A DNA stretch of 64,000 nucleotides from Perna viridis (lineage: Eukaryota), in NCBI GenBank assembly GCA_037379345.1, contig CM074511.1, forward strand, positions 6,200,001 to 6,264,000, written 5' to 3'. A program made the position numbers and the translations under genes. Below the pieces are notes generated by a model. It searched no databases. It saw nothing but the letters and a program-made list of their open reading frames with translations, and was not told the origin of the DNA. Below are positions 25,767-57,486 of the stretch, piece by piece (within the stretch, counting starts at the first letter, position 1; every line of letters starts with the position of its first letter).

Positions 25767-27793
25767 ATTTTGTAGGATTTTATGTGACTTGCATGAGCAA
25801 TTCTATACATGATAATTATGGGCATGCCAACAATACAACAAGGAGAAATCAGTGAAAATAACTGAGGTCAAGGGTCAAGAACAGTGCCAAGCTGAAAAGC
25901 TAAGGTCAAAGTTACTTCAGAATGGAATGTCAAACTATGAACTGCCATTCGTAAACCCATCACATTACAGCAATGAAAATATTCCCACAACTGACAGAAA
26001 AAAAGTATGTAGAAATAATTTAAAGGTCATGGAATCAGAGAAAAGAAAAAAAAAAATAGCAGCATTGTGAATTGACAAATGGACATCAAAAGACCCTAAA
26101 ATTATTCTGAACATAGATGATTTAATATTTTATTCAACTAAAAATGCATAAAAAATTTGTTTTGTCCTCAACTTGAAAACATGATGCTTACCAACATGAC
26201 ATTAACTGTACTGGCTGTACAGGGGGTAAAATTGTGCAAAAGTTGAAACCCCCTTAACCCAGATTGATATAGATAATATATCAGCAGTTAAACGAGACAT
26301 CAATGTATTGGATCTAAAATCACTACAACAACACATCATGATCGGTCCTACTTCCTACAGATAATGAAAAGTTATGAATATTTCTTGGCACAGTATGAAA
26401 TCTGACCCCTTTAAATAGAAAATTTATCCCTCTTAAAGTGTGCAAGGAGAAAAAGGGGGTTGTAAGTTTGATCAGTGCCCTCCTGTTTCAAGTGAAACAT
26501 GCCCTATAACCTGCCGCTACAATTTAGCACCAATGAAATGAATCATTGATCACAAACATGATTACGATGAGTCAATCATAAAAAACTTTCATACAAATGA
26601 TCAGCATTTTACACTATAAGGCATCATGTTTAAAACACTACTCTCATCACATTTATAAAAAAATATTTGATTTCATATGATAGCCATTCATCAATGAGGT
26701 ATCTCCTATTATCATCTAACAAAACAAAATATTATTGATAATTTAGAGAAAAGAATGGAAGGCAATTTGTTTCATACTTTAAAAATATGCCAGAAACATT
26801 TCTGAACAGACCAAACCATTTGATACTTGTATACAACTGGTCCCAATAACTATTATGCTTATAACCTTAAAACAATGTATCACAATTCTTGTCAATAGAC
26901 CACATTCGTATGTAAGTTTAACAAATAAACAACTTGTAAGTTATGGTGAAGCACTTGTATAATTAGCCAGGTTTTAGGATTTACTATTTATAACAACTGT
27001 AAGCAATATCTTGCACTATTGATGCCCAATTACCCATTTATAAAAATCCCATCAAAATGTAATTTAGTAGAAAGCAGAAGAAAATCACAATATATCAGCT
27101 ATTATAAATCAATGAAATTCATCATCTATGTAAAAATCTTGATATAAAAATAATTTGAACATGAGAAAGAATACAGTATCAATCCATCAAATGTATCACC
27201 ATTTAAGTAGATATTAATATATTCAAAAATAAGCTTTCTATCAACGTGTAAGGAAATGAACTTTTTACAGTTGTTTGTGAGAACATGTTTTAAGTAATGT
27301 GATACATATGGTAGATTTCATGACATTTCAATAACACAGTACAATAAGACAATATTGCAGCCTCAGATTTCGCCCTTTTGGTTTATAACTAACTCCTTAG
27401 GAGACAAACAAGTAAATCACAGAGTACAGCATCATGTCTATAGAGGTTTATAACCTCCCATTATTCCATACCTTACAAAGGGTTTTAACCCTGATGTTAA
27501 TTGGTTAGCACTAAACAGTGGCACTGCTGCCAAGTCACATGCACTCAGTTGTGGCTAGAAAGTCAAACCACATGCACTAGGTAGTGGCTATAGAGCCAAG
27601 TTCATTAACTTGGTAATGGCTACACTGACACAACAGATAGTCAACCCAGACTGCAACCAAGCTCATCTTTTGCATGGAATCAACATTATGAAAGACTTTT
27701 CTAGTGGGTAGAGTTTTGTAAATAGTTTGTCCATGCTCCAGTCCTTGGTATATAAAAATACTGTTATTTCATTGGTCTATATGGATCACATGA

Positions 27794-28034
27794 TCAATTC
27801 TGATTCATTTGTAAATAATTGACATTATCGCCAATTTGCTGTCCAGCAGCATTGCACTCTTTGTGCACAGGATGTAACAATCTAACATCTAAATTAGCAT
27901 TATGTTCCCTTAGAGACTCTCTGCTATAATGTTCCACTAAAAGATTGATGTCATTAAATGAACAGTGTTGAGATGTGAAGCCATACTTATTATTGTCTTT
28001 ATAGATTAAACAATGTCCAACTGAACCTTGAAAT
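27794..28034 (-). CDS. PIK3R1: p85-like terminal exon: cSH2 C-part plus tail ending DNVNYLQMNQN*
   Basis: tttcAG acceptor; GHCLIYK..YGF..LVEHYSRESLREHN.NLDVRLLHPV; TGA at 27796-27794. Confidence 0.92.
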
Positions 28035-28498: not shown

Positions 28499-28639
28499 AC
28501 AATGGACAGCACATTTTTATTGGCATCATCTTTTTTCGGTCGGATTAAGAATGTACCATCTCTCTGGTTTACTAATAGTCTTTCTGCCTCTGGACGATCA
28601 CAGTCTACAAACCAATCTTTCTCTTCATGTTTCTGTTTA
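28499..28639 (-). CDS. PIK3R1: p85-like cSH2 N-part (HEEKDWFVDCDRPEAERLLVNQRDGTFLIRPKKDDANKNVLSIV)
   Basis: AG/GTAAGT, 141 nt, phase 2/2. Confidence 0.92.
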
Positions 28640-29252: not shown

Positions 29253-29489
29253 CTTTCACTTTCTAAAATTTTTTCAATTAATTCTGCAGGATAATTTTGG
29301 TCTTGTAAAAACTTCTTAATTTGATCTCTTTGTTTATTTAATCTTTTGATTTCTGGTCGTAGAGCATTCATGTCACTAATCAGAGACCGGTTCTTTTGTG
29401 TCTTTTCAGCAATATCATTTTCTAGCTGTTCTTTGCTACGTGTTATACTATCCAACCTCCCCTTCAACAAATCATAATTCTCTTTCAAT
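29253..29489 (-). CDS. PIK3R1: p85-like iSH2 coiled coil, helix 2
   Basis: AG/GTAAG, 237 nt; NYDLLKGRL..MNALRPEIKRLNKQRDQ. Confidence 0.93.
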
Positions 29490-30775: not shown

Positions 30776-30809
30776 ATGTTTCTCACAGATTATAGTATCA
30801 TGTCTGTAC

Positions 30810-31042
30810 CTTTGTAAATCTCTGACTGAAGCATCAGCATGGTGTCGCTTATGTAATTCCAGCTGCTCTTCAAATACTTTCACTGTTTCTTTAAATGCAT
30901 CCAAAGCCTGATGTTTGAGCTGAAGTTCTTGGTTAAGTTTAGAATGATCCTCATAGTGTCGATCATATTCATTCATCTTTTTGAGGTAGTCATTATGAAC
31001 TTGTTGTAGTGTTTGTACCTCCTGAGATACATCTGTATATAC
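30810..31042 (-). CDS. PIK3R1: p85-like iSH2 coiled coil, helix 1
   Basis: AG/GT, 233 nt, phase 0/2; QELQLKHQALDAFKETVKVFEEQ. Confidence 0.93.
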
Positions 31043-31777: not shown

Positions 31778-32249
31778 AGGATTGACATCTCTAGAGACCT
31801 TGTGAAGCAGTTTGATATTCAATGTCTTGTTATATATTGCTAAAGAATTGTGTTTATAATGTTCAATTAGTTCCACCACAGAATCAAAGTTGAGAGGTTC
31901 CACAAATCCATATTTCCCATCTTTGTGATAAATCTTGATTAATTTATTTGTGCCACCTTTTCTTAAAGTCAGTGTGTAGTCTCCGGGTGAGGTGGCATCA
32001 CGAACTAAGAATGTTCCATCAGCTTTATCCCGTAAATGTTCGTTCACTTCCTCACGTGAAATGTTTCCCCAGTACCAGTCAGCATCTCGTAATTGTTCTT
32101 CGGGAGTGATCATACCTGTTTCATAATTGTTAGGATGAGTTCTTGGAGGAATGGGTGGTGCTAATGGGGGTGTTGTCTCACCCCAATTTCCATTTTTTAA
32201 CATTTCTTCAATAATGTCTATGTGTAGTTTTGTATTATCCACGATTTCA
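31778..32249 (-). CDS. PIK3R1: p85-like exon: end of BH, Pro-rich PPIPPR, nSH2
   Basis: AG/GTAAGT, 472 nt; inside ORF 31754..32278; GTFLVRDA. Confidence 0.96.
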
Positions 32250-34227: not shown

Positions 34228-34426
34228 ATGATTTTCTCCCATGGAGGTCTTAGCAGTATATGACAGAAAACATGTGACAGTTTATCTAAGCCATCAGATG
34301 TCCCAGACTCATGCTGTATTCTCCATAGTCTTATGAAATGTCCCATCAGGAAATGAAGTGTTGATTTGTGTGGCTGGGGTAACTGGGTTGTGAGATCAAT
34401 TAAGTTCTTAGAAGCCTCTGGACTCT
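34228..34426 (-). CDS. PIK3R1: p85-like RhoGAP exon (KSPEASKNL...LPQPHKSTLHFLMGHFIRL...LSHVFCHILLRPPWEKI)
   Basis: AG/GTAAG, 199 nt, phase 1/2. Confidence 0.9.
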
Positions 34427-34626
34427 CTGTAATTATATTGTAATACTAATTAAATGACACTTCTATGACAATTGCCAGTTTTTTTGTTTAATCAACTTCT
34501 TGCATCAGTAATATGAAAATTAAGTAGCAATAGTTCAACACAGTTTTCATTATTTTTTCTCATGCATCTATTTTTATCAAATAATGGCTTGAAATAAAAC
34601 TGAAATACTCAGACTAATTGACTTAC

Positions 34627-34761
34627 TGGCAGCTGTGATAAAGCTGTCGTACAGTTCTACTGGAACTACTGGATTAGGTAGTTCTCTCAGGTATTTCTTC
34701 AATACTCCTGCTACACAGTGAACATTGAACTGGGACAGGTTCACTTGAGAGGGGTCCGTAG
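34627..34761 (-). CDS. PIK3R1: p85-like RhoGAP exon (ATDPSQVNL...VAGVLKKYLRELPNPVVP...FITAA)
   Basis: AG/GTAAGT, 135 nt; LK.YLRELP.P RhoGAP motif. Confidence 0.93.
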
Positions 34762-36759
34762 CTACAAAATCAATGGACAAGTTTATCAAAGGGGACTCAT
34801 TCAATTACCCTATTAATAGGCATTTAATAATAGTCATTGTTTATGTTCTTTCTAAGCATCACCCCAATAGTAAATGTTAACTCGTCTATTTCAACATTGA
34901 ATTAACTTTTTCAGATTGTTTCAATTTCAAGAACATTATACTAAAAGCTTGCAACAAAAACACATGCACACTTGACAGGCCAGAATTAATTATGTCATGT
35001 ATTTCGTGTTGATACAATAAATAACACATGACAGTAACAAAGGTAAACTATATACACTGACTGACAGTTGTCAAGCTTTATTTGTAAAATTGAGTTATCT
35101 CCCTTACTGCAAGCTACACTGTGACCCAGTAAGCATTTCTTAGGACTCGTGACTTCAATTGAAAATTTAAGAAATAATACTAGACACCACAAATTTAAAC
35201 CAGACTAAAAATGAAAAATTTTCCATGAATATTATTCAATAAATAGTATTTTAATATTGCTATAAATGAAAATGATGTGAACTCTTCATCACAAGCTAAA
35301 TCAATTTGTACATATTAGAAACAGATGTGAGAAACTGATTACAAAAGTCTCGTGCATCTTAATACTGACTTCCTTATTCCTTAATTTTTTATCAGTATTT
35401 GGATTATAAAAAAATGTTTTATCCTCCCACAAACACAACTACAGTATCGATTCTAACTTAAAATAACCAGTGAAAGTGAACCTGAGGGAATTGTTAACTT
35501 AGAAAGTAAGTCTAGAAAATGTTCACATCTTTGGACCAGAAATTAAAAAATGACCTGAGGTAAAGGGGTTAGATGTGTCTGATTTTTTTCCTGATATTTC
35601 AGGATAATGACAAGAGAATGCCTTCAAGACTCTCTAAATAGCTCTTAATATCAATCATACCTTCAATGGAGTAAAAAAAATGGTTTGTCTTCAGAGAAAG
35701 ACGTCAGTAAGTGTAGCTATATATGGCCTCATTAAGAAAATCTGATTATTCTGCCGACAGGAGAAAGTTCTCCAAAGGAGAACTAATTATATTAGCTTTC
35801 TATAAACCAATGACCTACTTATGATTTATCTGATATGGACCAAGAAACCTTTAACATACATTCCACTTAAACTTAATTAATAATTTTTTATTCTCTATCT
35901 TCAAATAATCTGAATTTCACTGTACAGACAAGATTATTATTAAGCTAACAGCATTAACATTGCATTCCCCTTACAATCAGTATATTATATTGAGAACAGA
36001 TAAATCTGGCATAGACTTGACTGGCTCCATTAAATCTTATTTCAATAAAAAGACGTATAACACATCTATTCCTTCCATGCAGACATATTCAGCGTCTTCA
36101 AGTATTATTGAATCAGTATATTGGTAAGGAGTGAATCATCTGTAAGATATTTTCAGTTCGGCCTAAATTTATGTCAGACATACACTAAATGACTCCATTA
36201 TTGATCACAATCAACCTAATATAACAAAATACTATGATATTTAATATTCTAATAGGCTAGTAGGATCAGCTGCACCATTTCTATTGAAAACCGCAGCAAT
36301 ACAAAAATAGAATTAAGCCATTACATAGGTGGTTTATACCTTTATATAACAGTTACTGGGCTGGAATATTGAATAATTTAACAAGTCTATTTTCCTACCG
36401 TGTTATGGCACACTGCTCATATTTTAAGACAGATGGAATTTTGTTTTCTACCAGTTTTATGGGAGGTTAATGACACATGCAACTTATTTTTAGACATAGT
36501 CAATTTCATTTCTGGACTTAATGGACCATTTATTCTATCTGAAGTACTTTGTACCATGTTTTTTAATAGACCGAAACTTCTTTTTAAATCCTATATATTA
36601 TAATAGACCAGTGGTATTAAAGGTACCATACAGACCAAAGCTGATTTATGAACTTTCAGTAACACAGTGTAAACCATATCTAAAGCTATACATCAAACAC
36701 AGAAGCAACATTCTAACTATAGCTGACCCTAGTAAAGCTGAATCTCATAAAGATCTTAC

Positions 36760-36837
36760 CCATATTGAGTTGGACTTTGATAGAGTTTACTTCTTCTGAC
36801 TTGGCATACATTCGATACACACTCAGTGCTTCAGTTT
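36760..36837 (-). CDS. PIK3R1: p85-like RhoGAP exon (QTEALSVYRMYAKSEEVNSIKVQLNM)
   Basis: AG/GTAAG, 78 nt, phase 1/1; VYR is the arginine-finger position. Confidence 0.85.
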
Positions 36838-37262
36838 CTGCAATGGAAGAAACATTGACGTAAGACCTTGCACTTTAATTAACAGAGTACTTTTATCTAT
36901 TTCAGGACTGTTCTATATAGGTTACAGATCAGTCAAGATCATGATCTGTAATGTATGTACAATGCTACCATAAAGAGCCTCAGAAAGTGACATATACACA
37001 AGGCATACATATCTCTGTGTGAAATAAAATTTCTAATTCACCTATGCATATTTTTCTTCAGGACAGGAAATGTGATTTTTTGTCGATATCTTTTCCATCA
37101 TTAGCTAACAAAGCCTGGAGGTTGTACAAATGATCTTTCTAGGTAACAATACACCACCAACAAAACTACAGGGTTATGCAATCCCATGGAAACCTTTAAT
37201 ATTTAATCCACATGACAGCTGAGAGATATTATAACTAGGTCAAACTGAAAGCAGTAACTTAC

Positions 37263-37373
37263 GATGATTTTCACACCATTTCTCAATCTCCTCAGTACAC
37301 TTTGAAATCACCCAAGGAGTTTCTGTATTATGTTTGCCAATTTCCTCTGAGAGATCCTCACCAAATACAGAAT
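37263..37373 (-). CDS. PIK3R1: p85-like exon, RhoGAP/BH start (SVFGEDLSEE...PWVISKCTEEIEKW)
   Basis: AG/GTAAG, 111 nt; VFG.DL...P.VI.KC.EEIE motif. Confidence 0.9.
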
Positions 37374-37827
37374 CTATAAAATTTAAAAGTACCTGTCACT
37401 TCTGTTCAAATTTCTCTAATTTCAGTAATTAACATAAGTTGATAAATTGATTTTGGCATACATTAGGTGTATAGCACAATGGCTCCTTTCATAAAGGGAA
37501 ACATGCAAGTCAATCATGATATTACCGTGAACTTTGGTCTTTTCATAATTTTTAAAGGCGCAAGAAAATAAGTTAATAGAATACATCAATGAATGAAAAC
37601 CCACAAAATTCAGATCAAGTACAGTTTTTAGTCGTTTTTCTTAACGTTGTGTTCTATTTACAGCCTTCCTTATGTTTACTGGTGATTTCTTAGATTAATG
37701 AGTTTTCCACTAAAAAAAAAAAAAATTCTGCTCTTTTTAAACTGATTTTTACTTTTGTGATGTAGATTTAATAAGAACATTAAATTTGGATTTTTTAAAA
37801 AATGATAGAGGAAGATTATCAACTTAC

Positions 37828-37926
37828 TTATAGTAAAACTAGGTCGTCTCAACCTTTCTAATTTTGGCACACTGCATTCTGATTGTCTTGATGCTGAACA
37901 ATATCGGTGACAACACATACCACACT
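37828..37926 (-). CDS. PIK3R1: p85-like exon, C1 domain C-part (ECGMCCHRYCSASRQSECSVPKLERLRRPSFTI)
   Basis: AG/GTAAGT, phase 1/1; C-x4-H-x2-C-x7-C completes the C1 domain. Confidence 0.9.
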
Positions 37927-38679
37927 CTGTAATGTAAATCTTGCTTTGAATTCATATTCATATCATACTAGTATGCAAACATTTCTTAAAATCAGGTTAA
38001 AGTTCATTTTCTACACACACAAAAATCTTGGCTCTTAACATCTTTTCTGGCATTGAACTCCCAAAATAATCCAAACCTAATTAATCAAAGATGAATATAT
38101 GATAAAACTACATCAAAGATACTTTGATTTCTCTGAAAAGATGAGAAGGCCCCAACAACCTGCCAAAACTAATATAAAACTTCATAATGGAGTTCTTATT
38201 GGAAGTTATTTTTGGTTTCATGTCTGGTGTAAGTCAAAAGCAATGAACAAAATGAAATCTGATCCAGTCTTACTTTTCCTAATTGCTGCTTCAAGTTACC
38301 TTTCAGCACTAACCTACACAGCAGGTTCTTTATCAGAGCAGCCAAATAATGAATTGGTAAGTGGTAACACACTTTGACCCACTAATAGTGGAATCCATGT
38401 CAATTATATCAAAATGGCAGAATATGACCTACTTGTGTCATTTCACAATGGGAAAACCAAAAGTCTTCAGAATACTAAAAGATCAGGGATGGTTTGCTAT
38501 GGATTTGTTACTAAAGGTTGGAATGGAAAAACCAAGAAGGGAAGAATTCATACTGATTTGCATTTATAGCTTTACAACATTAAATATTAACCTCTTTAGG
38601 AACACCCATATTAATGAAGAAAAAAATCGTGAACTGACCACACCATAAAATCAGTAAAATGATTCAACATTCTAATTAC

Positions 38680-38796
38680 CTCTACATTGCAATCCTTGGC
38701 TAATTAATCCATAGAGGAATTTGTCACAAAGATGACACCGCTGCATAGAGGGAAAGCTGTATTCAGAAAATCTGTGTTCTGATGCTGCACCATCTG
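38680..38796 (-). CDS. PIK3R1: p85-like exon, C1 domain N-part (HRFSEYSFPSMQRCHLCDKFLYGLISQGLQCR)
   Basis: TAGCAG tandem acceptor, GT donor; H-x12-C-x2-C-x13-C spacing. Confidence 0.9.
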
Positions 38797-40167: not shown

Positions 40168-40219
40168 CTTCCATTTCAATGATCTGTCCAGAAACAGGTA
40201 AAGAAGTAGCATAAGGTCG
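40168..40219 (-). CDS. PIK3R1: p85-like linker exon (RPYATSLPVSGQIIEME)
   Basis: ttttattcgcAG / GTAAGT; phase 0/1 as required between the SAM and C1 exons. Confidence 0.75.
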
Positions 40220-42763
40220 CTGCGAATAAAAGTCACACAAATTAGAACCTACATTTTGACAACCACATGTTTGTATGGAAGAAGAAAATTCGTACATTTT
40301 CGTTAAATCCCATGAACACACTGTCACTGAATTGAACATCAAACAAATCTGTTAGTTCTATAAAAATATCCACTGGCGACATAAAATGTAGAAGTTATTC
40401 CACAAATGAAAATTATTTTAAAATTTTAAATCCAGTTAAAAAATCCTTTTTTTCCCATTCAACAAGTTGATAGTGATGTCATAACTCCAATAAAATATAT
40501 ATTCCAATATTTCTAATTATTTAAATCTGCATTGCACAAGTTATTGGAAAACCTAATGGACACTGCACCACTGTTAGAGACACTTCTTACTGGTATGACT
40601 GCCTCTACTGTAGTGTGTTAGATTTGTTCCAGTGAACACACATTTAGGTCAGGTCAATCAGTCAACCAACCAAACACTTAATACTTAACCTAGAAAATAG
40701 CTTGGCACACTGCCAACTATAGAACACCATTATAAACTGACAGTAGATTTTACCTGTACAGTGGCCACTATGGCCTAGAAACATTGTATTGGACATTTTA
40801 TATTGGTAAATTTACTTATAATCTTACACATGTATAGATTTTCTGTGTAGCTGGTGAGAAAATCTGGGTCAATGAGATAAAAGAAGAATATAGTGTATTT
40901 ATAGATGTTTATTGTAATAGGTTAACAGGAGGGTGGGCTTTCATGTTAAAGATCAAGTTCTACCACATATTGGTTCTGTGGTAATATGATTAATGTCTTA
41001 ATGCTATATGGTATAGAAAAGGGGGAGGTAGACCAGGTTTATAAGACAGTGACAGTTTTGTACAAATATACTCACTTTTTTTTAAAAACATTTTTATTGA
41101 AAATAAATTATCACAAATGTTAAAATTTTCTTTAAGCAAATCAAACAAAATTGGAAAAAAATGAAATAGGTCAAGAGATATGAGAGAATATAGTAAGTGT
41201 GAGGTGAACAAGCAATTTTAGATCACCTCCCAGATTGAAGGGAGAGATCTGAATCTACTAAATATTACAAAGGAAAATAACCTAAGGTGACGTAAAAGTA
41301 TCCTAGATCAATCCAATTTAATTCATAAGTCTGTCTTATGTCAAGAAAAAATCGTGATTTCTCAGGGCTAATGCACTGGACTTTTTGGACTCTCCTATAT
41401 AGATAAATCTTCATAAGAAAAAAAGACTAAAAGTTTGGAACAATGTGAATTACTCAAATATTTAAATAATGTCTAAAAGGAATTAAGGTAAGTAAACTTT
41501 TTGCTTTAATTTAAAAACAAAATGAATAAACCATGTACACTTTAGGCAACTTAGCTGTACACATGTGGTTAAGTTGCATGTAAATTTTCCCCTGACTTTG
41601 TACTTTTAGATTGAGACAAGAAGAATCGGTCAAAATTAGCCGAGGGACATAACAACCTGCCAGAACAACCAAAATAGTCTGATAAAATAAAAGGAATAAT
41701 TGGTAAGAGGTTAATAATACAATAATTTAATATAATTTCCATACATAATGCCTCAGATTTAACTTTAAACACTGTCATAATATGACAACGTATACGAATG
41801 GCGCCTACGAAATCATCAATCTGAATACAATAGACTTGTAATTAACAAAATTGTCAATCAGGTAAGGGAAATAACCACACAATTTAAGCCCATTTCCCTG
41901 TATCTAATGGGACCACAATTTCAGTCCATTTCCCTGGTCCTTCAATTGCTTAAACAGATAATAGATATCCATAAACATATATAGATGAATGTCTATCAGG
42001 GACTTATGTAATTCCAACATCATTATTTTTTTCTCTGATCCTAGTTTAAACAAAAGGCCATCTAAAAATAAACATTTCATTTAAAAATGGGTAACTTTTT
42101 TTTCTAATGAAAGCAGACAATAACTGAATCAAATTGATAGGTTTGATGATGTGCCAGGGAATACACAATAATCTAGAACCAGACAGCTGATGTAACCCAA
42201 TGATGGCATAAAAAGTTCACTGTAAGCAGTAATATATTCAACATCATCCAATCTTTAATTGCAATATTGACAGGGTTTTGAATTCTTTATAACAAAAGAA
42301 TTGGGTCTGATCCAGAATGTAACACTTTTCATACCTTAGTGATATTTTGAAACTTTCTGAATAAAAACTTCATGACATGAATTTAATATTGAATTCCATC
42401 AATAGATTTTATAAAACCTCATGATGGGATGTTTAATGATATTTTTTTTATACAAATGGTTATCAGGAGACATCTTGCAGTAAAGGAATAATAAATTTGG
42501 CAGTCCACCTTCCAAATCATGCAATAATTCTTTTTCACGGGAATGTTTGGAGCCCACTTGGGGGTAAAACAGTCTTTAGGTACATAATTAGATGTAGGCC
42601 ATAAAGTTTCAGGTCACTAGTTCTTTAACAAGTCTTATAGGTAGTTTATTTTCATTTTCAATGTTCAAGGTTGTATAAACACACACTAAACTCTTACACT
42701 GTGTAGAAACAGGCACTCTCAAAACCCTTATAACTGAAAGAGGAAATGAATAATGGTATTAAT

Positions 42764-42994: not shown

Positions 42995-43075
42995 CAGGGT
43001 TGGATCTCTTCCACAAAGTTCATCTATACACACCATCAACGACATCTTGTGGAAATCATCTTTTATACCAAGTTC
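42995..43075 (-). CDS. PIK3R1: p85-like exon, SAM domain C-part (ELGIKDDFHKMSLMVCIDELCGRDPTL)
   Basis: poly-T cAG acceptor, GTATGT donor, 81 nt; L.ELGI....H...L...I..L SAM helix 4-5. Confidence 0.85.
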
Positions 43076-46000
43076 CTGAAAAAAAAATTCAGAACATTCA
43101 GTAGAATAAACTAAATTATGCTGAAAACATCAATTTTATTAAGTCCTTTAAATATTAAGTTCCAAAAGGAAAAACAATATGGCTATTTTAAGAAATTTGA
43201 AATCTTGGGGCTCAGGGAAAGAACTCAGTAGATAAAACCTAATCAATATGAGTGAGATCAATTTTCAGAGCTTAAAAGGAGATACAAAATTGTCAAATGT
43301 ATAAGGCACTGCAATCCCATTAGACTTCTCTGTTTTATTAAAGCCATTGATAATAAAGCTGACAATGTATTAAATCTAGTCCAATGACAAATCAAGGGAT
43401 CTGCATTTATGATGATGGAATAATTTTTTAAACAGTTAATGTGAATATTATTTCAATCAAATAGGTATGAAATTATTTTCTTACTTAGTCCTTGTATAAG
43501 GTGACATCTGTTGCTCAGAACTGTACTTTAACATTTCATATATTTATAATTAATGTTTCTAGGGTGACTATGTTCAAGTTGATACTAACATACAAAATTT
43601 ATTTTGATCAGAAGTAGGTCTAAACCAATGCATTTGGTCTTTTGTATCTAAGAATACTGTGGACCAATTTTATCACAAAATAATTACCGGTAATTTCATG
43701 TGAGATTCATAAATAGAAAGTACCACATAGAGTAAGGTCTTTTAAGACAGAAATGAAGATCTGCTTGAAAGAATCACATATGTATGTAAAATGAACAGCT
43801 AAAATACTGGCAATATTAAAGAACCTTAAAGACACATATACACATTTGCATTCTTTTGAAAAACTTCATTCCCTACACACAAATAAAAAGTGGTCCCTCT
43901 TTACCTATTTCTATAAAATCAATTCCGTCCAAGTTTTTATGCTTCTAGTTAGCCATCAAAGTTTGAATGAAATCCATCAAAAAAAACATGGGCTATCCAG
44001 GCAATAATTTTGAACTAAATCACCCTCCCAGTCCCCCCCCCCCCCACACACACACAAAAAAAAGCAGTCTCCTTGCCTTGACCGATTTCTGTGAAAATCA
44101 ATCCCATCGAAGATTTTATTGCTACTAATCATTCATCAAAGTTTGAAGAAAATCATTAAAAAAATTCAGGAGCTATTCTTCATATATATATATAGGGATA
44201 CCTGTCTAAACTGACCACGTTTAGAATATAAAATTGGTTCACATTAGGCAGGTGTCCTGTTTACCAAGGTTCAAAATACATTTAAACTGATATGAAAGGA
44301 TTTTAAAAGTGTCTGGTTTAGACAGGTGTTTTTCCAGGGTTTGGTTAAGTAAGATTTCACAAATAAACATACAATATAATTCAAATTTCAATTTTTCCAT
44401 GGTAGACTTTTCTACTTTTATTTAATAGTAACTTTTGGACAAAAGGGCTGTCAGATACATTGATTATTGCTATATAAGATGGTAGTTAGTATTTAATCTA
44501 TTATTACCCAATAGTAAAGTAATTCTATAAAGTCGGAAGACTGACATATGATTTAAACCATTGTGTACGTGACTAACCACATCAAAAGACTACAAATGCC
44601 AAACTTTATAGTCTCTGCAACAATATTAAATTAGCATGGTTTTCCTATTTTTACATACAGGACATCAACCAGGACAAATCACTACTTCTTTTTAGGATGA
44701 ATTTGATGAGAGTAACCAATCCCACTTCTAAATTAACTTGAAACACACAATGTAAAACAACTCTAAAATAAGCCATCAATGGATATTTGACCTATAAAAC
44801 CAAGAATAAAGAAACAGTCACATAGCAAGTCATGTTTACAAAACAAACACACACAGTGTGAGGGTTAAGAAAAAAAAACATCAAACTAGAAACTTCAAAT
44901 CTTTTTTTCTCCTCTTTCATGAACATTTGAATACAATAACTGTAATTTTATTTATCATCACATAATTTTCCCATTCTGTCATTTTTGGAAATTCAACAAT
45001 TTATCTGACTGAAAAAAATCTTGTCATGTGCAATATCTGACAACATAATTCTAGGTATGGAGCGGATAACTAATAGCTAGGGCCAATTTGGTAATTCTTC
45101 CAACAAAGTACAACCATGACACAATACATCTGTTACATAAAGGCAGTGAATTCATGGCTACATTACATATAGGTTAAAACATGCAGCCAGATATAATACA
45201 CCTGTCATTGGCGGTAGTCACCACATGACCAATGTTGAGTTCTTAATGTAATGCACTAATAACCAAAATGTACGTGGTTTAAAAAGGGAAGAAATGTCCA
45301 TTATTTTCGTCCTATTGGTGAAAAGGAGGAACCCAATAGCAGTGGTTAATTATATTTTTTATCATATCATTTTAACAAGCACTTTATTCTTTTGACTTCA
45401 TTTCATGTGCTGTCAACTTTTAACTTTTTTTCTTGTGTCTATCAGCATAAAATAGTCATTTACCACCTTTAAAGAAGTACAAACCACATGCAGCCTTCCC
45501 TACAATTAGATGAGGATTGGTTTCATTTTTTACCCAATGAGGTCAAAGGTATGATACACTACACTTGGATCAGTTCATATATAAAGTGCAGAGGGGAAGA
45601 GTACTTGCTTTTGTCATTTTCAACTTTTTTCATTAGTACATAATCTACTATTTTTGTGTGATATTTTTTTTACTTTAATATACTTATCATAACCTTTAGT
45701 CAGTATCCTTATCCTAAAGCCCATGTTTTTTAAGGTTTATTTTGTCCCTCGATGGAAATTTTTAAAAGAATAGGTCTCATTTTCCCAGTTAACATGTAAT
45801 TAATCATATCATAATGAAGTGTTTGAGGAGACACTAAAATGAGAATTAATCTACATAAAATCCAGTCTATACCTACTCTGGTTTCCTTAAAGTTCATGAT
45901 CTTAATCTGATACCCTAAAAAGTCAGAAAAATTTAGCAATCAAAACTTCAAAGGACTGTAATAACATGACCTATATTATTCAATATTGACACCCATTATG

Positions 46001-49000
46001 CCATAATTCTTTTACCAATAGATCAAAGTGAAATACAAACTTTGATAAGTTTCACACTACAGCTTTTAATTGGTTTAATTGTCCTTCCTTTGTTAAATCT
46101 TGGCTTTAAACAGGTAGATACAAATGCATGAAAAAAATATATATATACTGTACCTAGAAACTAGAATGACACCATAGAATTATCATGCCATACAGGGTTG
46201 GTAAGTTATAGACAAGGTGTAAAAATAGACCAATCCCACTAAATATATACCCATTGTTCATGGTGTATCAGTAACAGGGTGAGGGTTAGATGTCAACACA
46301 ATCAAATGTACTGGCATAATAGGATTTGTTAAATCAGCTTTAAAAGAACAAACAGATTTTTATCCATGTGTCTTTTCAGTTAGTTCAAGCAGATATATAT
46401 CCATTGTTTTTTATTAATTAAGTTAATCAGAAAAGACATAAAGTGAACTGTGTCACACAGTACGTATTATTGGGTGGTATTCAGCACAGTAGAAATGCCT
46501 TCTAGGTTTTAACAAGAACAGTTATGATCAGATTTAAGTTCTACTAAGTTAAGGGGAGGAAACAAATGAAAAAAAGAATCAGATGATCATATCTGTGTTA
46601 GTATATTCCTGAAATGTTTTCTTGTGACTTTCTGTACAGTAAATATTATATTGAACCACAAACACATAAAGTAATGATACAATAACCAACAAGATTTAGA
46701 TGCATTACAATTAACTGATAATTTTCCATTGTGTTATAAAATAAAAAACAAAATCCAAAAAGCATAAAACATTTCATATGAAGAAGTCAGACTTTTGCCA
46801 TTACTTCTCTGGACAAGGGTTTTTATAATTTTAGCAGCAAAATTTTCAGGGTAATACTTTCACTCGATATTTTGAAACAACAAGATGAAAAATTGAACTT
46901 GACACATGTAGTGTCCTCATCTTATCTAGTTCACTGTCTGCATGCTCAAGTCTGCAAGATAATTTTCAGCTCATTTTCATTGTCCTAAAAGAATACATGC
47001 TTAAGAACAAATTTTTACAGTCTCATATTTCAAAAGAAAACAGTCCTTTGTCAGTGATTTTTCACACAATGGAGATCTTAACTAAACTAATTTGCAAGGC
47101 AATGCATTTGAATGCACAATATGCATGTCAAAGCAGGTTTCAAATGGATCTTTACAAAATGTGACATCCATGGCAGATACGAAAGACATTTTACAGCTTA
47201 TGACGTGATTCATCTCCAAGTGATTGTAGACACTAGAATTTATGGCAAAAACGCAGTCATCCTTAAATTATTTCAAATCCATCTTCTTATTCTCTGTCCC
47301 TACATATACACAGATATTCTGTATTATATCACTATAGAAAACAAATATTGTATAAAATTACATATATATATACTCTGAAATCACTGTTGGATCAATTTAA
47401 GTGTTATCCAAAAATATATAGAAAGCAAAAATAAAATCACCTTTTTCCAGAGGACTTCACATTATAAATTTAGTCTCTTGTATAATGTATCAAACAGATA
47501 CTGTTCATGCATCAAATTTTGCAGATTTTGTCAAGTGAACATTTTCCATATCAAAAGTTTGTACACTGTAAAAACTAATGTATACAATAATTTCCAAGTA
47601 TGCAAATGTTCTAACAATGAGAAGTTTTTCTTTTGTCTTGACAATAAATACATTCAAAAGATCTTCAACTTAAAATAGTCTTATTAATATGAAATATTTT
47701 CAACAACAAAAAAAATTGAAACATCGCCAGTTACTCACTTGTGCCTCTCCCATTACTCATCAAGGGAAAAAAAAAAATGACTTCCAAAAATTGAACATAG
47801 GGCCTTTATATCAAGGGAAAGTTTCCACCCATTTTTTCTTTTGTTTCTTTTAATTCATGTTCTATTTAAAGCCTTGACCCATCTTTGACATTCTCTACAA
47901 ACCGAACCATTTTTCGAATTTAATTACTTTTTTATTCAATTTCTAATATTTTTTTCATATGGGCTATTTAATTACAAGTTATAGACAGGAGTGATAAATA
48001 TTTCCCATAAAATAGTTAATAGTACTTTATTGAAAATCATTCGGTCATAGGGTTAATTATATTTAATATGCCAAAAATGTTGATCAAGTTATCAATGGTT
48101 AGCATACTTCTACAGTACTTATTAAAGCATGGACTTATAAAAGATAAAAGTTATCGACCAACCCACATAACACAAAAAATAACTTGAATGAAGAAATGAT
48201 GACCGCTGACTAAAACCCATGACAGCACTTCTTTGTATTAAGTCCTTCAATTATCTTTTTTTTCCTTTGGCATGAGTTCATCTATTGGCCATCAGGTCAA
48301 CTGTATTTCAAGGCTTTTTTTTTTTTTTTTTTAAATTATTCCATAGATTATCTTTTTATCAATCAATAATTATGAATGTAAAAGCTGAACAAAGACAAAG
48401 ACATTGTGGGCAGGGTAGGAGGATCACTATGGAAACAGCCGTCTGCCTGTTGTCAATCATGACCTCAAACACAAGCCAAAGGTGTACTAGCTTTTTTAGA
48501 AACCTGAAACATGAAAGAGAAGAATGTAATTAAAAATAGAAAATTACAACATGTTGTAGCCCAGCTGAGGTCAGGATTAGTTCACAGAACTATTGCCATA
48601 TATTACTTGAACACTGTCAGTAAATCTTTAAAATAGTCCATTATATAGGCGCTAGGGCAAGGAAGGAGGCAGTTATCCTTCATGGTTATATATTTAATTA
48701 GACCATTAACAGGACCCATACTTAGAAAGGCAGTAACCACTATTAGTGTATTTCCAATTATCACTAAATAAATGTCATTTTTTATGCCAAAAAGTGAAAA
48801 GAAAATTGGAAGTTTTTCAAGGCTACTGACAAACATGATTTATGTAAAAAAAAATATATTGATATTTTCTTAGTTGTTTGACTGCTTATTGAAAATTGTA
48901 CTAATTCAGCAAAACTTGATGAATCCTAATTAAATAAAGACAAAAGGCATGATCATATAATTAGTCAATAAAGCTCTGTGTAACTTAGATTTTGAAATTG

Positions 49001-49231
49001 AAGGAGAAAATCAAATTCACTATTAAGATAAGGCTCAGTGCAAATAGTTCATGTAAAAAGCATAACACAGAAAAAGCTTGTAGCTTAAGGAACAAGTTGT
49101 TAACAGATATTACACATTTGTTTATAACACAAAATAAATTGAGAAGGATAGTTGGCAGAACTTCACCAGTGATAGAGAGACATGAAAAGATCATTGAAGG
49201 GAGTTTACTTCTTTCAAAACCTTTCTTGATA

Positions 49232-49935
49232 TATCACATCTACCCAAAAGAACTTGAGATAAAGGATGCTACAGACACTGTGAAGTCAGCCTCATATCTT
49301 GACCTACACTTAGAAATTGATAGTAAAGGAAAACTATTGACCAAACTTTACGACAAACGTGATGACTTTTCATTCAGAATTGTCAACTTTCCTTTCATCT
49401 GTGGCAACATCCCTTCGGCTCCTGCGTATGGAGTGTTCATATCACAACTCATACATTATGCCAGAGCTTGCTGAAACTACGCAGACTTTTTGTATCGCGC
49501 TAGAACTCTAACAAATAGGCTTCTGGAACAGGGTTATGTTGCTACAAGATTGAAGTCATCACTACAGAAGTTTTATGGTTGTCATCATGAACTCGTGGAT
49601 TGTTATGGTGTATCCATCAGCACCATGAAAACTGATTTATTCAACGGGTCATAGTTTTCCTTTCCTCGTTTGTCTACCCCAGGCTTGACTTTTTATGAGC
49701 AATTCGGCGGGTGTTTCTAGAAAAGCAGAGGACGCTTACCCTAGCGGTGCACCTGGTCCATGCTCCCAGTTTTAAGTGGAGTCCGAGTTGCTCATTTACT
49801 TTTGTTACTTTGTATGTATGATTTTAGTTACTTTATGTTCTTTGTTGTGTGTGTCTGTTTTCCATGTCTGGTCTTTGTCCCTGGATTACATTCTTTTGAT
49901 TACCGCTATAACCTTGGTTCCTTTGATTACTCTTT
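49232..49935 (+). mobile_element. 5'-truncated Penelope-like retroelement (RT C-terminal part plus 3' region)
   Basis: IYPKELEIKDATDTVKSASYLDLHLEID..LYDKRDDFSFRIVNFPFICGNIPSAPAYGVFISQLIHYARAC*NYADFLYRA..LQKFYG..TAG at 49652-49654. Confidence 0.85.
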
Positions 49936-52900
49936 GACCATGTGAGTAAATGTGGGTATCTCTTTTCAAAGCCTTTTTATACTAAAGTGTATATGTTAGT
50001 GGCATTCCCCTTTATGGCAGAAAATGCCTTACACAACAAGCATTTTTGGGTTTTTGATCCTTCAGGATCAAAATATCTTATGTTATCGGTCCTTCACTGG
50101 AACTTTCCTACTATTTCTGAACACTACAAAAATATATAGTCCAGATGTAATTCCTTTTGTATCATTTAATACCACTTGTTATAACAAGAAAATATGTTTC
50201 TTGCAATTTATCAGCTCAATAATATTGTATTATTTATGCAAATAAAATTGAGATCGGGTCTTCATATCAACTCAAGATTTGAGGAACTCCTTTTTGGCCT
50301 TGAAAGATATTTAGTGATAAATTTACATTTAGGGAATTTATTTGTTGCAGTAATATGTCTGGAATGATAAAATGTGTATAATATGATCATTTTAACACAC
50401 TTAAAAATTCAAATTATCCATCCTATTTTTAATATTTTACCATTAATAAACATGAAGTGAAGAGAAGTGATTTTAACCATGCAAAATTGGCAGGAAAATT
50501 CAAATTGATTATAGTGTCTAGTTTTTGAAAATCTTGTGTTATGGAAATTATTTTCTTAAGCTGACATTGGTTTTATTTAAGTATAATTGTTATGTATGGA
50601 TTGGTTTTATTTAAGTATAATTGTTATGTAGGATAAAATACTCTGTTAATAAAGCTTTTGAATGTAAATGCACAATTAAACTTTTTAAAAAAATTTAAAA
50701 AAAGGGAAAAAGGTGAAATCGAACAAAATATGTATATGTGTGTGAAGTTGGGTCAGTAATATAAATTGACTTTCAATTTATACATATTAAAAAGGACAGT
50801 TATTAATAGTATTTAAAATTCAATTTATGATCACAGTTTTATTTAACATCATATAATCTTTGAAATTTTGTTCATGCTACAATTTTCACAAGAATCAAAA
50901 CCTCCAGTGCTATCTGTACTTTGATTTAGAATTATGTAGCCAGTTTCATTTTCAAAATATATATCATCAAGTAACTTGAATAATTCAAGCCCTTTCCCTC
51001 TCAGATTTTCTCCACCTGAAGGGCTTGAATGCGCTATGTTCATTGGACGCGTCAGCCCAATACAGATTGCATTGACCAAATGGTGATGCAGAAGCCGGGA
51101 TTCTGTGCATAATGAATTTCCATTAAAAATACAAACAACGAAAATAAACGTCGAAAGTGATCTACTGGACATTGAAGACAAATATAATGGAGCTATCATA
51201 GATCGGCAGAATTACACGGCAGAATTACACGACTGATATTCTTTGGGTTAATGATCAAGGAGCATATATTATTTGACAAAGTACATTAGACCTCCATGGA
51301 CATATCATAACTTAGAAACAGAAAATAAAGAGGGATTCTTCCAATATGATAAATTTGTATAAAAAATGGTAAGATCCCTCATTGTTTTTTTGTTTGTGTT
51401 ATCACTCCATATAAAGACAGATACTGATTTACTATAGCATTAAATGACAGGCATATAAATGTCATGGCATACTGATGGTAGATACCCAGACAAAATAGTT
51501 AGCAAATATTTATAAATAGCAAAATTACTTATTCTAAAAGATCCTTTCTTCAGTAATTTTGTTTAAAAAACATGAAGGAAATTTGTTATATAAAAAAAAG
51601 CCAAACAACAAACAAGAAAAATAAACTGTGATTCTAATTTATCGGACAAGAATATGAAAGCATGTAATGTTAAAGAGTTCTTTAAGTACGTTAAGTTTTT
51701 CTTTGTACATTGACTTCTCCCGGTATTTAACAACACTCATTTCTATTACAAAATCTAAAACATTGAACTATGTATTTTTAATTGAAATTTAAAAAAAAAA
51801 AGGAAAACTCATCTGCCAAAAAAATTAGTCTCTAACAACCTTCAATCAAGAAGAACTGAATAAAATTTCAGAAAATCTTAACAAAGTTCCAACTTTTGTT
51901 ACAGCATTATTATCACATTTTCAAAATGAAACATGGATGGGTGTTTAAGCTTGCATTTCAACACTTGAATTACAGTAGTGAACAAGGAAAAACTGGTAAT
52001 TAACAGAAGGATATAGGTCCTTAGATATAGTCTTAACAACAGGAAACTGACTAAAGGTGGAAATTTAGATGTAGAATTAAGTTAGATACAAATTATATGT
52101 ATTTCTATAATGCCATGGACCGTAATGACTGGTTTGAATGATATATCTACTTTTTTTCTTCCCAGTTGGTCTTGTCTAAAACTCTTAGTTAAAATTAGCT
52201 GTAGCTTGTACATGTATGTTTTTATGTAATGATCTCATGTGTAGCTGACATAACCCTGTTTTTATTTTTTTCCTAAGCAATATAAGGGAAATCAAGGGAT
52301 TTGACCTGTAATAAAAATAAAGAACAAACCAAGAAAAATGACAAGTAAAATAGTCCCAACACATAACAATGTACATGAAATAACCGAACTAAGAAATACA
52401 ACCCAGACTGTATGGGATCCGAGGGTAGGATAAGTACTCTCTGAGTTTCTTGAAACACCTACCATCATAAAAGGTATCTTAAAACTTGAAGTTATGAATA
52501 ATAATTGAATAAGATTTTGTCAATTTCCAAATATAGCAGTGATACAAGCTTTGTGTCTCAGCTGCTTTATATCTTTATCAACACAATGCTGAGACTAGAA
52601 CATAACTCATTTACAATTCCAAGAGTTTATGTTAGTCTTAAGATATATAAAGAATATAATTGTAAATCTGTAGAAATTTTCAAGGATACTATATGCTACA
52701 GGAATGTAAAGTTACTCCTTTCCTACGAAGAGTAAGATATACATAGGTTGCCAGTTTCAGTACATGAATCTGCATTTTTTATGTAAAATCACAATCAAGT
52801 AAGACACAATAAAACCATTCTATTATAATATTTCAAACTATAAAACATTTAATTCAGTTACCTCATACCTAGTTGGTGCCACACACATATCTTAGAAGGT

Positions 52901-55900
52901 GATGTTGGCTTACATTCCTGGCTCTACATCAAAATCTTACCAGAAAATACCAATAACAACATTTAACTGGTAGGGTACTATTATGTAATATAAGTATGTT
53001 CTATTAAGCTTCTCCTGACAGAGGAACTTGCTAATCATATTCATCATATGCATGCCATATTATGATAGGTACCACGGAAGATGACAAGTAGTCCATAGGA
53101 TAAGAAATAGAAGGACACGGAGTAATGTCTTTTCAATTTGTTTGTGAAAACCTTAGCAGTAAGTGTCCAAGAAGAATACTGCCATGGCGGCCGAGGACAC
53201 GCAAAGCTCTTGGCTGGTATGTTTTAACCACAGAAGCCAAGTTACTCACAATTCCAGGCGGGTTCAAAATAAAGAGAATTGTCACTAATCTACTGTTAGG
53301 CAAGTTACACTTATCTCCAAAAACACATCCCTTAACCACATAAAATAAATCCAATCTTACATTCAGTCTGCCACCATATAGCCCTGAACATCAAGTTTGA
53401 TCTGCCAAATATGTCAAGTCTCAATCCTTTATTTGGCTGGCTATCCCAATCTATTCCACTACAATCTTCAATCCCCCCCCCAAAAAAAAAAACAAAAAAC
53501 TGAAAATTAAAGCCCTTATATATTTTCAACACCAATACACCAATTTTACTATTTAAATTATCATATCTTATATAACTGACCTAAATTAAGCACCAATGCA
53601 ACACCAACTTAGCACCAATTTCCAATAAATCAAAAACTTTGACAACTACTTAAAACAACATCCTACATGAGTAACATGATACTGTACTTCATCACCTTTC
53701 CTATAGTAAACCACTTAAAATCATAATAAAGATAAACTTCTGGATATAAGACTAATGGTACAATGACTTAATCAAAATATACTTATCAAGACATGCAACT
53801 AATTATCATGAAAATATACACCTCTACAATACATTCAGTCAAAACTATGCACTACTTACCAGAAAAAAAAAAAACTAACCAATCCTTGTACCACACCATG
53901 ATGATAGTTTCTCATCCTATTATGTTAGGCACAAGTTGGTCACCTAGATAAAACTTCCCACTGCTAATTTGTACTAATTAATAAAACCAGTACAAGCATT
54001 AAGACAACACATGCATTGTTTTTAAGTATTAGTAAGGAGATAAAAGATACAGAATATACAGTTCAATACTAGTTCAACCACATATATAGTTTTACTGAGC
54101 TACCAAAACAGAAAGGCTTTATCAAGACTGACCATTTTTGGTTAGGAATCAATATTTCTCTGAAGAACAGATTTCTAGTAAAGACTGGGTTAACCAATGG
54201 CCTAATTTTGAAAAATAAATTAAATACCATTATTTAAACAATACAAATTGCTCAGCTAAAAAAATCTTGATGACCTTAAATCAATACCCAATCACAGTAA
54301 AGTGAACCAGGATCTTGCTGGAGCGTGAGAAATGTGTAATAAAGTTGGTAAATATATGGCGCAAAAAACTTGATCCCTCATATCCAATACATCTTTGGAA
54401 TGCGCTTTATCACAATTTGAGCAAGGTACAAACTAATCGGTATAAATTAAATTCAATTCATTAAAGGTTCACTGATTGATTGTGAAGGTTATATCATTAA
54501 AACAGCTTGTTGATCCAGAAATATTAAATCTGAACTAACCGACTCCTTTTCCAGAGAAAATGTACCAAATTAACCCAGAAAATCCTCTTCAGAAATCGTG
54601 TCAATATCTCATCCCATTATCATGTTTAGGTACTGGAAATAGAACCAACAGATTCTTTCATTTTGTTTGAATGAATTCCTGCTGATGGAGGAGAGGCTTT
54701 CAAGTATTCTGTCTGAAGAAAATAATTTTTCTTAAATATCTTGAGCTTATTATAGAGCCAATTTGTACTTAGATGTTATTGTCTGAACAAACTACATTGG
54801 ATGAGTGACTTTCTTTGAGAAAAAGAAGCCATATTATGATACTATAAATTCTACCCACATTTTGTCACCTTAAAAGAACACTTCCAACATCGCCTCACCT
54901 TATGTATTTACATTAGCTTTCTCTGTCTTCAGAAAGCATATTAGTACACAAAGTAGGTAAAGCTCTGCTACCATACATGTATATCTTGATCATTTTACAG
55001 CGAGCAGCAATGTTATCTTCAGGGAAAAGAGTTGGTCTGACAACTACCTTATGAAATCATTCAGGTAGTTTAATGGACAATTGACAAAGAGATTTAAAGT
55101 TTCTATCAAACTTAGATTTAAGACAATTCATTAGGTATTGATCATTTAGTCAAGGAAAAGCCAACTTCATTTCCTAAAGTTAACCAGTTAACTTGCTGTA
55201 ACTGACCTTATTAGTATCAATTCAATTTATATTGATCTATTTAATTTTAAATGGTGAAAGTTAGATTCAAACATTCAATTCTTTGTCAACATAAATCTGT
55301 TCACATTCAATCTCACACAGGAATGTCCAAAAGTAAATGGAGTCTCCAGGATTTCAGTAATAAAGCTTTTTCAATAAAAACTGTCATATATAAAGGTGAT
55401 TGTAGTACAATAATTTGTTACTTAAACAAGTATGTTGAAACTTTAAATGCTCTTCATACCTATTCAAAGTGTCTACAATTACATTTAAAGATTCATCATA
55501 TTACAGCAAGAAAAAGCTAAATAGATGAATCTCCCTTGTTCTGAACTAAAACACCTGGACTATGAATTAACACACTGGAGAACAAGTCTGGTAATCATAT
55601 ACAAACTGACTTCTTAACATTTGTCCACCCAGAATTACATGCGTACATGGTGAACGCCTTCAGTTGACAAGTCACATTCTCATGTTTTAACTCATTTTTA
55701 GAACAGGTCTGCAGAGATGGGCAAGAAAGATGAATTTTCAGAACACTATTCTATACACCTCCACATTCAACTGAAAAGCATAATTCACATCAAAGGTTGG
55801 TTCAAAAGTCATAAAGAAGGGGTTCTTTTTAAGTTAGTGGTATATCCTGAAAGGATTGTACCAAAGCAGCCATTAATTATGCCTACAGGACACCTGTTTT

Positions 55901-57486
55901 CTGTAGAACTTCTTCTGTATAAACAGTAGAGATAAATAATGTCTTTCTCTACATTACATAATACCTTCACTGACCTAGAAAGTGACATTTAATTAACAGA
56001 CACACCCTCTAACCTAATTATTGATGAGCAATACACATGACATGGTAATCAATAAGATGTCCATATGATGGCTGTATTAGCTGACCACAGTGACTCACTG
56101 CCTACAAATAAATGATCAATAATACCTCCCATACATAGTGTTATTGATATAATTTACTTATCTGAATTTATATAAACGTAAGTCCTAATGTATCTTTGAT
56201 TATCTGAATAGTGCCATTACAATCTAAGGGAAAACCAATGAAATTTGGAAAGGTTCTCACATGAGTCATTTCTGTATGTCTAGTAGGGCTTCATGATTTC
56301 AGAGTTAGAGAAGATATGTCTAATTTCAGGCTTGAATCCAAGAAAGGTGTGCTGGCATATACCTCTCCCTTAGAAATGGGTAAAAAAATTTGTTTGCATG
56401 AATTAAAAAAATCTACAAATAACTTTCTTGCCTCACTTTGCTTGGCCTTTAATTTTTTTATGTTCCCAAACATGAAAGCTCCCCCAAGGTTCCTACTTCT
56501 GGATGTGAATTTCTGATTCTATTCAAACTATCACAAAATTGATTGATATGACCCCATATGTGGCGAACACACTATATACAATGTCAGAAGTAGTCAGGAG
56601 AAAGACCATTATTAGTAAGAAATGAAAGGCTCTCTAGGAGATAACTGTTATGACAAACTACTTAGAATCAGTACAAATGAACTCTTTGGATTAATATGTT
56701 CACTTCTACTTAAATTTAGAACAAACTTAACCACATGGATGTTCCCTACAGTTACAGGAGTTAGAATGACTAAACTTTTGACCTTATCACTTAGATTGTA
56801 GCTACTAGGACATATACAGTACATACCAACAAAACTAAAAGTTCAAAAACCTAACCAGGTTGTAATCTATACCACTATTATATAACAATGCTAAGAAGGA
56901 CGTTACCCTATGTTATTTTATTTCACTTTACTGTAATCTAGCCCATATTTCCTGCTGTGATGTGAACTCAAACTTTATAAGCCTTTAAACCTACGAACTG
57001 TAAAGGAAGATTACCATTTTTGCTGCAGAAATTTCTCATTAGGCAAAGCTTAAGCTTGGGTAACTAATAAAAATAACATTGTGAAATGATGCATAGTTAA
57101 CATCGATCTGAAGTAATAACTTTACCTTTCAAGTCAGGTAATACGGTCAATGTCCTCATTTGTATGTCCCATCATTGGAAATTCTAGATTAGTTATCCAA
57201 TTATTTTCTCTGCTTTATACATTGCACTGATGCAAAGCGTGCATTGGTTGAATCTTACATAAACTGGGTATAATTGTTTCTACATCATTACAGCAGGATA
57301 GGACACTCCATTTCATTTTGTTTTCAATATTTCCATAATATTGTAGAGGTTTAAAGATGATAAGCAGTCTAGAAATGGTAATTAGAGAATGCTGGACAAT
57401 TTGCTTCTAACATGATATTAAGAATTACATTGTATATCATTATGACAAGCCACTTTGCCTGATGAATTAAGGTAACACTATACTGC

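Follow-up and report, generated by a model that had tools for sequence, protein, structure and literature searches.

The class IA PI3K regulatory subunit (PIK3R/p85) of Perna viridis ends in a Y-L-Q-M motif, carried on a short tail behind the cSH2 domain, which is real, expressed and strongly conserved. The SH2 domains of p85 bind pY-x-x-M, and the tail follows this ligand pattern, with a Tyr and a Met at +3. An earlier note, made from the DNA sequence alone, had proposed that the tail, once phosphorylated, could bind nSH2 or cSH2 in cis or in trans and thereby either release p110 from inhibition or compete with receptors; as a whole, this interpretation is partly supported by the results described below.

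The p85 gene of Perna viridis and its last exon

The gene occupies the minus strand of the analysed window, a 64-kb stretch of P. viridis DNA, from beyond position 62437 to 27794, and tblastn matches together with RNA joints show that its spliced product comprises SAM, C1, RhoGAP, nSH2, iSH2 and cSH2 domains. The nSH2-iSH2 (PF16454)-cSH2 core resides in one spliced ORF, as documented by Pfam hits, RNA joints and an open 440-aa frame. The closest relative is the PIK3R of Mytilus, with a match of 73% over the last exon and 88% identity over 362 columns of the SH2-iSH2-SH2 core (clade support of 100). The following features, all on the minus strand, were delineated:

27000..28034 (minus): last exon, with the second half of cSH2, the tail, the stop and the 3' UTR (RNA joint, depth)
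27794..27865 (minus): C-terminal tail past cSH2, 23 codons and the stop, predicted to be disordered (reading frame; pLDDT of the Mytilus orthologue)
27806..27817 (minus): Y-L-Q-M motif, 16 residues past cSH2 and 3 ahead of the C-terminus (frame; mollusc conservation)
28499..28639 (minus): exon for the first half of cSH2 with both arginines of the pY pocket (FLIRPK, with Lys at the position of p85alpha Ser651; RNA joints, alignment)
29253..29489 (minus): exon for the second helix of iSH2 (RNA joints, Pfam)
30810..31042 (minus): exon for the first helix of iSH2 (RNA joints, iSH2 family match)
31778..32249 (minus): exon for a proline-rich segment and the entire nSH2 (RNA joints, Pfam, alignment)
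34228..38793 (minus): six C1 and RhoGAP exons, 34228-34426, 34627-34761, 36760-36837, 37263-37373, 37828-37926 and 38680-38793 (RNA joints, tblastn)
40168..40339 (minus): internal exon that, in extended form, likely opens the coding sequence of a short isoform (joint 40168-38793; P0009 and P0002 in tblastn)
42995..62437 (minus): two exons of the long isoform that encode the SAM domain, at 42995-43075 and about 62285-62437 (tblastn only)

The cSH2 domain ends with LLHPV at position 27866 and is followed, in the same frame, by 23 residues and a TGA stop (27796-27794), so that the tail announced as about 24 aa long is indeed present but slightly shorter. YLQM extends from the first base of its Tyr codon at 27817 to the last base of its Met codon at 27806, exactly where the motif had been placed in the minus-strand frame. 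Human p85alpha, by comparison, ends 6 residues beyond the equivalent PV and has no YxxM there, in agreement with the earlier statement that vertebrate p85alpha stops shortly past cSH2 without such a motif.

The last exon starts at 28034, with a canonical acceptor upstream, and encodes the second half of cSH2 and the tail. The joint from 28499 to 28034 is present in 28 and 52 raw reads, respectively, of two RNA-seq runs, in which no other RNA joint falls inside this exon and the depth is unbroken across the stop into the 3' UTR; the latter reaches at least position 27000, the edge of the stretch covered by the RNA mapping. Because of this joint and the unbroken depth past the stop, the tail belongs to the mRNA, whose lack of it had been named as grounds for abandoning the idea. 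An artefact of exon calling and an alternative last exon were also considered and are ruled out by the same joints and depth.

The upstream extension of exon 40168-40339 encodes an N-terminus that matches Mytilus P0009 (90%) and P0002. A short isoform starting from this exon and devoid of SH3, the first C1 and SAM is likely, as judged from these matches. In both runs, RNA covers this exon much more deeply than the SAM exon 42995-43075. Within the 64-kb window, tblastn detected no exons for SH3 and the first C1, and these would lie beyond it. A search for the iSH2 family in the genome, in which 24 candidates were scored, yielded at least two matches, both in this p85 gene. This number is a lower bound, and if iSH2 is confined to this gene, each class IA holoenzyme of the species would likely bear the tail. 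The conserved iSH2 and nSH2 suggest that P. viridis p85 binds and inhibits p110.

The remainder of the window contains several features outside the p85 exons. A 693-codon open frame on the plus strand (992-3070) is rich in Lys, Glu, Ser and Thr and has no Pfam match. Two intronic repeats stand out by very high read depth: a short high-copy one at 30620-30800 (in run X15) and another at 48725-50046, covered on both strands with many mismatches, which includes a 161-codon frame (48989-49471) that by eye resembles a retroelement fragment and has no Pfam match. Tandem repeat arrays, recognized by repeated peptides in the six-frame translation, are located at 25140-25484, 42767-43000 and 58928-59612.

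Conservation of the tail motif across animals

Taken alone, the YLQM of a single tail is weak evidence and could be due to chance, given that the probability of encountering YxxM in one 23-residue tail is 1.7% under background composition and 4.0% upon shuffling of the P. viridis tail. We therefore turn to the homologues, 120 in number, for which counts by lineage were limited to the rows with a named invertebrate source, leaving out unnamed and vertebrate rows. Of the 25 named mollusc clusters, 24 carry YxxM in the tail, the expectation after shuffling each tail being 1.56; the 24 include all bivalves (9/9), 13 of the 14 gastropods and both Octopus clusters (2/2), the single exception being Physella, with Leu at +3. 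Among the five other named lophotrochozoans, four (Capitella, Owenia, Lingula and Lineus) carry the motif and Tubulanus does not, and it is found in 0/18 arthropods and 0/5 invertebrate deuterostomes. In a quick maximum likelihood tree of 59 chosen rows, which included unnamed sequences and was built from an alignment without the tails, YxxM marks 31 of the 32 rows of the mollusc clade, where the rows, like the clusters above, are kin and hence signify persistence, not 25 independent events or independent origins. In the same tree, it occurs in 5/14 other lophotrochozoan rows and in 0/13 arthropod and deuterostome rows. Second, more diverged p85 copies of neogastropods (P0047 and P0056; Babylonia and Nucella) retain the motif as well. 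The alignments thus indicate mollusc-wide conservation far beyond chance, and the earlier suggestion that the Tyr and the Met at +3 should recur in related species is borne out.

A residue-level view of the 31 named lophotrochozoan tails, including that of P. viridis, shows which parts of the tail are maintained. The Tyr is fixed (31/31) and Met at +3, 92% identical, is present in 29/31, with Leu and Pro once each, the two tails without YxxM having been anchored by hand on their Tyr. Leu at +1 is found in 22/31, Val, Ile or Leu at -1 in 23/31 and at least one Asp or Glu within -4 to -1 in 25/31 of the tails, and the motif is mostly located 3 residues from the C-terminus. By contrast, pairwise identity at positions -6 to -1 amounts to just 7-21% within molluscs, and the linker between cSH2 and the Tyr is not alignable and varies from 7 to 17 residues (16 in P. 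viridis; 7-8 in 10/31). A fixed Tyr and a nearly fixed Met+3 amid scrambled flanks and linkers are as expected for a short linear motif under selection. That the tail is neutral sequence with a fortuitous motif, as the 2-4% probability for a single tail and its loss in several annelid-like rows might suggest, appears extremely improbable: persistence in bivalves, gastropods and cephalopods while flanks and linker length were scrambled refutes this explanation for molluscs.

The same positions bear on whether the motif might act without phosphorylation, as a YxxPhi sorting signal recognized by clathrin adaptor mu subunits. YxxM falls within YxxPhi, the motif is close to the C-terminus on a disordered tail and Physella has Leu at +3. 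However, a sorting signal would be expected to exchange Met freely for Leu, Ile, Phe or Val, whereas +3 is Met in all but two of the tails, one of these having Pro, and the acidic residues ahead of the Tyr are in keeping with a kinase site. The near-strict Met+3 points to the signature of p85 SH2 ligands rather than to a loose YxxPhi, and we regard a sorting role as very unlikely.

A wider set of 145 new representatives of 50% clusters, in which molluscs were folded into clusters already counted, included 86 sequences with iSH2 and a complete cSH2, of which one (P0195) has a tail YxxM. The matches gained in a search seeded with the Lingula sequence were mainly crustacean, and none of the C-termini listed has the motif. 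Absence from 9/14 of the non-mollusc lophotrochozoan rows and from Physella implies that the motif is dispensable in some lines. In 12 of the 18 arthropod rows, the tail has a Tyr with a hydrophobic or small residue at +1 but no Met at +3, and the tail Tyr may accordingly be older than Met+3, given that arthropod tails keep the Tyr alone. Other readers are therefore conceivable, such that the phosphorylated tail docks another SH2 protein, for instance of the Shc, Csk or phosphatase type, with p85 serving as a scaffold. Some SH2 domains other than those of p85 accept Met at +3. Nevertheless, we consider such docking rather unlikely, because Met+3 is nearly fixed in lophotrochozoans and because the best-known reader of YxxM is tethered on the same polypeptide, where its local concentration is high.

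Tails of other kinds were seen along the way. Arthropod p85 tails (P0059, P0064, P0066, P0069, P0085, P0088, P0089 and others) often have Tyr-Val or Tyr-Ile without Met+3, and those of Limulus (P0059) and Stegodyphus (P0066) contain Y-x-N, which we take to be a Grb2-type motif. In teleost p55gamma (29 rows; P0075, P0093, P0103-P0134), Y-[A/T]-Q-M follows straight after the PV of cSH2, with no linker, and the mammalian p55gamma row P0081 has His at this site. p55gamma reportedly also has an N-terminal YxxM.

Candidate readers of the tail

The tail is predicted to be disordered: when the Mytilus orthologue is modelled by AlphaFold2 from a 70-row alignment (mean pLDDT of 88.7), residues 927-944 form a coil with pLDDT below 50, and such disorder would leave the tail open to kinases. 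Docking of the unphosphorylated tail onto an SH2 fold was discarded on the basis of the low pLDDT (<50) in the same model, which has no bearing on the phosphorylated state. No report of phosphorylation of a mollusc p85 tail was found in the literature and oyster phosphosite data searched: the readable part of the oyster phosphosite supplements of PMC13280272, restricted to regulated sites, contains no p85 tail phosphopeptide, and p85 is not mentioned in the accessible portion of PMC11543851.

The one certain YxxM reader of the chain, judging from its residues, is nSH2. In P. viridis, this domain has 74% identity to its counterpart in vertebrate p85alpha and retains the equivalents of R340, R358, T369, K379-L380-I381-K382, F392, Y416, N417 and L420, with Thr in place of S361; R340, R358, T369, K379-K382, F392, Y416, N417 and L420 are kept in all 26 aligned lophotrochozoan rows (P. 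viridis included). We take these residues to form the phosphate (pY) and Met+3 pockets. The cSH2 domain, only 40% identical to that of p85alpha, retains the equivalents of R631, R649, C670, L703 and H706. In all aligned mollusc rows, it carries FLIRP[K/R] where p85alpha has FLVRES(S), often along with an acidic BC loop. In P. viridis, Y685 is replaced by His and Y688 by Phe; pteriomorph bivalves have lost the AEPY segment with Tyr685, presumably the cSH2 contact that inhibits p110beta and p110delta, and Tyr is found at the position of Tyr688 in just 1/31 lophotrochozoan rows. The notion that the tail YxxM substitutes for the lost Tyr688 was dropped as not specific, chelicerates being devoid of both.

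Given its position directly behind cSH2, the phosphorylated tail might instead fold into its own cSH2, thereby blocking receptors or freeing p110beta- or p110delta-type subunits from cSH2. Leu at +1 would suit the preference of cSH2, the two arginines and the Cys670, Leu703 and His706 equivalents are in place, and the mollusc-wide FLIRP[K/R] could be an adaptation to a fixed ligand. A precedent is offered by PLC-gamma1 (PMC3532599), whose pY783 is captured by its own cSH2, an interaction in cis that relieves autoinhibition and weakens the hold on the receptor. However, low identity to p85alpha makes binding by the mollusc cSH2 less certain, and the linkers of 7-8 residues are likely too short for a tail that has to reach around the domain, making such folding doubtful as a general rule. 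The termini of SH2 domains are near each other, on the face opposite the peptide groove. Furthermore, as given in bioRxiv 10.1101/791277, nSH2 of both p85 isoforms binds the Tyr607 phosphopeptide of p85beta at low nM and that of p85alpha at low uM, whereas cSH2 binds neither, and the YxxM phosphopeptide of p85beta is bound by neither cSH2. That p85beta's own phospho-YxxM is read by nSH2 and not by cSH2 supports nSH2 as the reader of the mollusc tail, and we consider capture by the adjacent cSH2 quite unlikely.

Complex prediction for Mytilus nSH2 against cSH2 with the tail gave a score of 0.35, compared to 0.01 for the best control, with the Tyr unphosphorylated and no contacts given. The runs agreed in at least 80% of contacts, with partner pLDDT of 76-79, but the score is barely over a mark which 51/78 solved complexes and 2/108 mismatched microbial pairs reach and which is not calibrated for peptides or disordered chains. 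In a calibration on eukaryotes, 39/65 solved pairs without a like complex and 2/126 unrelated pairs reach the mark. Scores of 0.60 or under comprise only 5/78 solved complexes and all 4 passing mismatches. The score may reflect memory of solved SH2-YxxM complexes or an interface without the tail, and the prediction is thus weak support for binding of the tail by nSH2.

With these considerations in mind, we put at about even the chances that the phosphorylated tail would be a ligand of p85 nSH2 in one geometry or another. In the route that we infer, a tyrosine kinase would likely phosphorylate the tail Tyr, after which the tail would likely bind nSH2, probably that of the same molecule; nSH2, once occupied, would be lifted off p110, de-inhibiting the latter, and the tail would compete with receptor and IRS sites for nSH2. 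Being tethered, it would outcompete free ligands. The enzyme could thus be primed at the receptor, have its hold on the receptor loosened and still be de-inhibited after leaving, as in the case of PLC-gamma1. The choice of nSH2 over cSH2 and of cis over trans, as well as the outcome, are part of the same chain of reasoning.

Binding in cis is a tentative possibility. The nSH2 and cSH2 domains share one end of the iSH2 rod, and, by residue counts only, the 16 free tail residues plus a few ahead of cSH2 would likely reach nSH2 in P. viridis. The lengths of the iSH2-cSH2 linker and of the tail linker show no compensation (Spearman -0.02, n = 36), which counts against a tight cis tether, as this might have produced it. 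In trans, which we deem somewhat unlikely, the phosphorylated tail would recruit a second holoenzyme or dimerize free p85.

Precedents and meaning for PI3K control

The nSH2-iSH2-cSH2 core and RhoGAP domain are common to P. viridis p85, PIK3R1/2/3 and invertebrate p85/p60, and the invertebrate proteins additionally share C1 and SAM; what sets P. viridis p85 apart from the family is the extra C-terminal YxxM tail, missing from arthropod, invertebrate deuterostome and p85alpha tails. Mollusc class IA subunits with C1 and SAM domains are described in the evolutionary survey PMC4617754, the accessible main text of which contains no occurrence of 'YXXM'. A full-text literature search, with limited coverage of subscription journals, retrieved no description of a C-terminal YxxM in mollusc p85.

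The assertion that no PI3K adaptor had been described with a ligand of its own was, nevertheless, too strong. In p85beta, the Tyr607 site is YSLM (chain 2y3a_B; YSMM in sturgeon), so that this protein, like mollusc p85, is a class IA adaptor with its own Tyr-x-x-Met ligand, described in bioRxiv 10.1101/791277. The same preprint reports that ACK phosphorylates Tyr607 of p85 and proposes dimers in trans that go along with lower PIP3, a cis arrangement being judged sterically unlikely or clashing. This precedent, acting in trans with lower rather than higher PIP3, counts against the reading of cis activation. Tyr607 of p85beta and p85alpha is located in the iSH2-cSH2 linker, unlike the mollusc motif at a free C-terminus behind cSH2. 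None of the aligned lophotrochozoan rows has YxxM in this linker, which in P. viridis is 13 residues shorter than in p85alpha and is devoid of the Tyr607 equivalent and its segment.

The second precedent concerns a cis mechanism. According to reviews (PMC9578963 and PMC10839044), PI3K may be activated when phosphorylated Tyr688 of p85alpha contacts nSH2 within the same molecule, and the former source also states that pYxxM in nSH2 breaks the inhibitory contact of nSH2 with the p110alpha helical domain. As proposed for the mollusc tail, a phosphorylation near the C-terminus would engage nSH2 in cis and relieve the inhibition of p110. By contrast, Tyr688 lies within the folded cSH2 and is not part of a YxxM. 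The intramolecular model for pTyr688 reportedly goes back to Cuevas 2001. As for the tail latch of the Src type, which is inhibitory, this analogy is less apt than PLC-gamma1, an activating cis latch with a Tyr motif just behind its tandem-SH2 unit, although the latter has the motif pYVEA in an internal linker and cSH2 as the target, whereas the mollusc motif is at a free C-terminus, with both target and effect proposed. The own-ligand principle hence has vertebrate precedent, and its free C-terminal, mollusc-wide form is apparently new.

Activation of PI3K is taught as requiring an outside pYxxM, provided by a receptor or IRS. Molluscs and their lophotrochozoan relatives might instead have possessed, already before bivalves, gastropods and cephalopods diverged, a class IA PI3K with a built-in activating phosphopeptide missing from vertebrate and arthropod tails, be it as a cis latch on nSH2 that yields a self-sustained state independent of receptors or, in trans, as a chain reaction with each p85 recruiting another; we advance this as a tentative proposal that may well prove wrong. 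A phylum-wide adaptor with a canonical motif on a free tail nonetheless provides a natural test of p85 self-latching, an idea that is contested in the case of vertebrate pY688 and has been demonstrated in trans with p85beta pY607. If the proposal is true, PI3K could switch itself on away from the receptor, and the tail would represent a predicted lineage-specific control point of insulin and growth signalling, both in farmed bivalves and in mollusc models of neurobiology.
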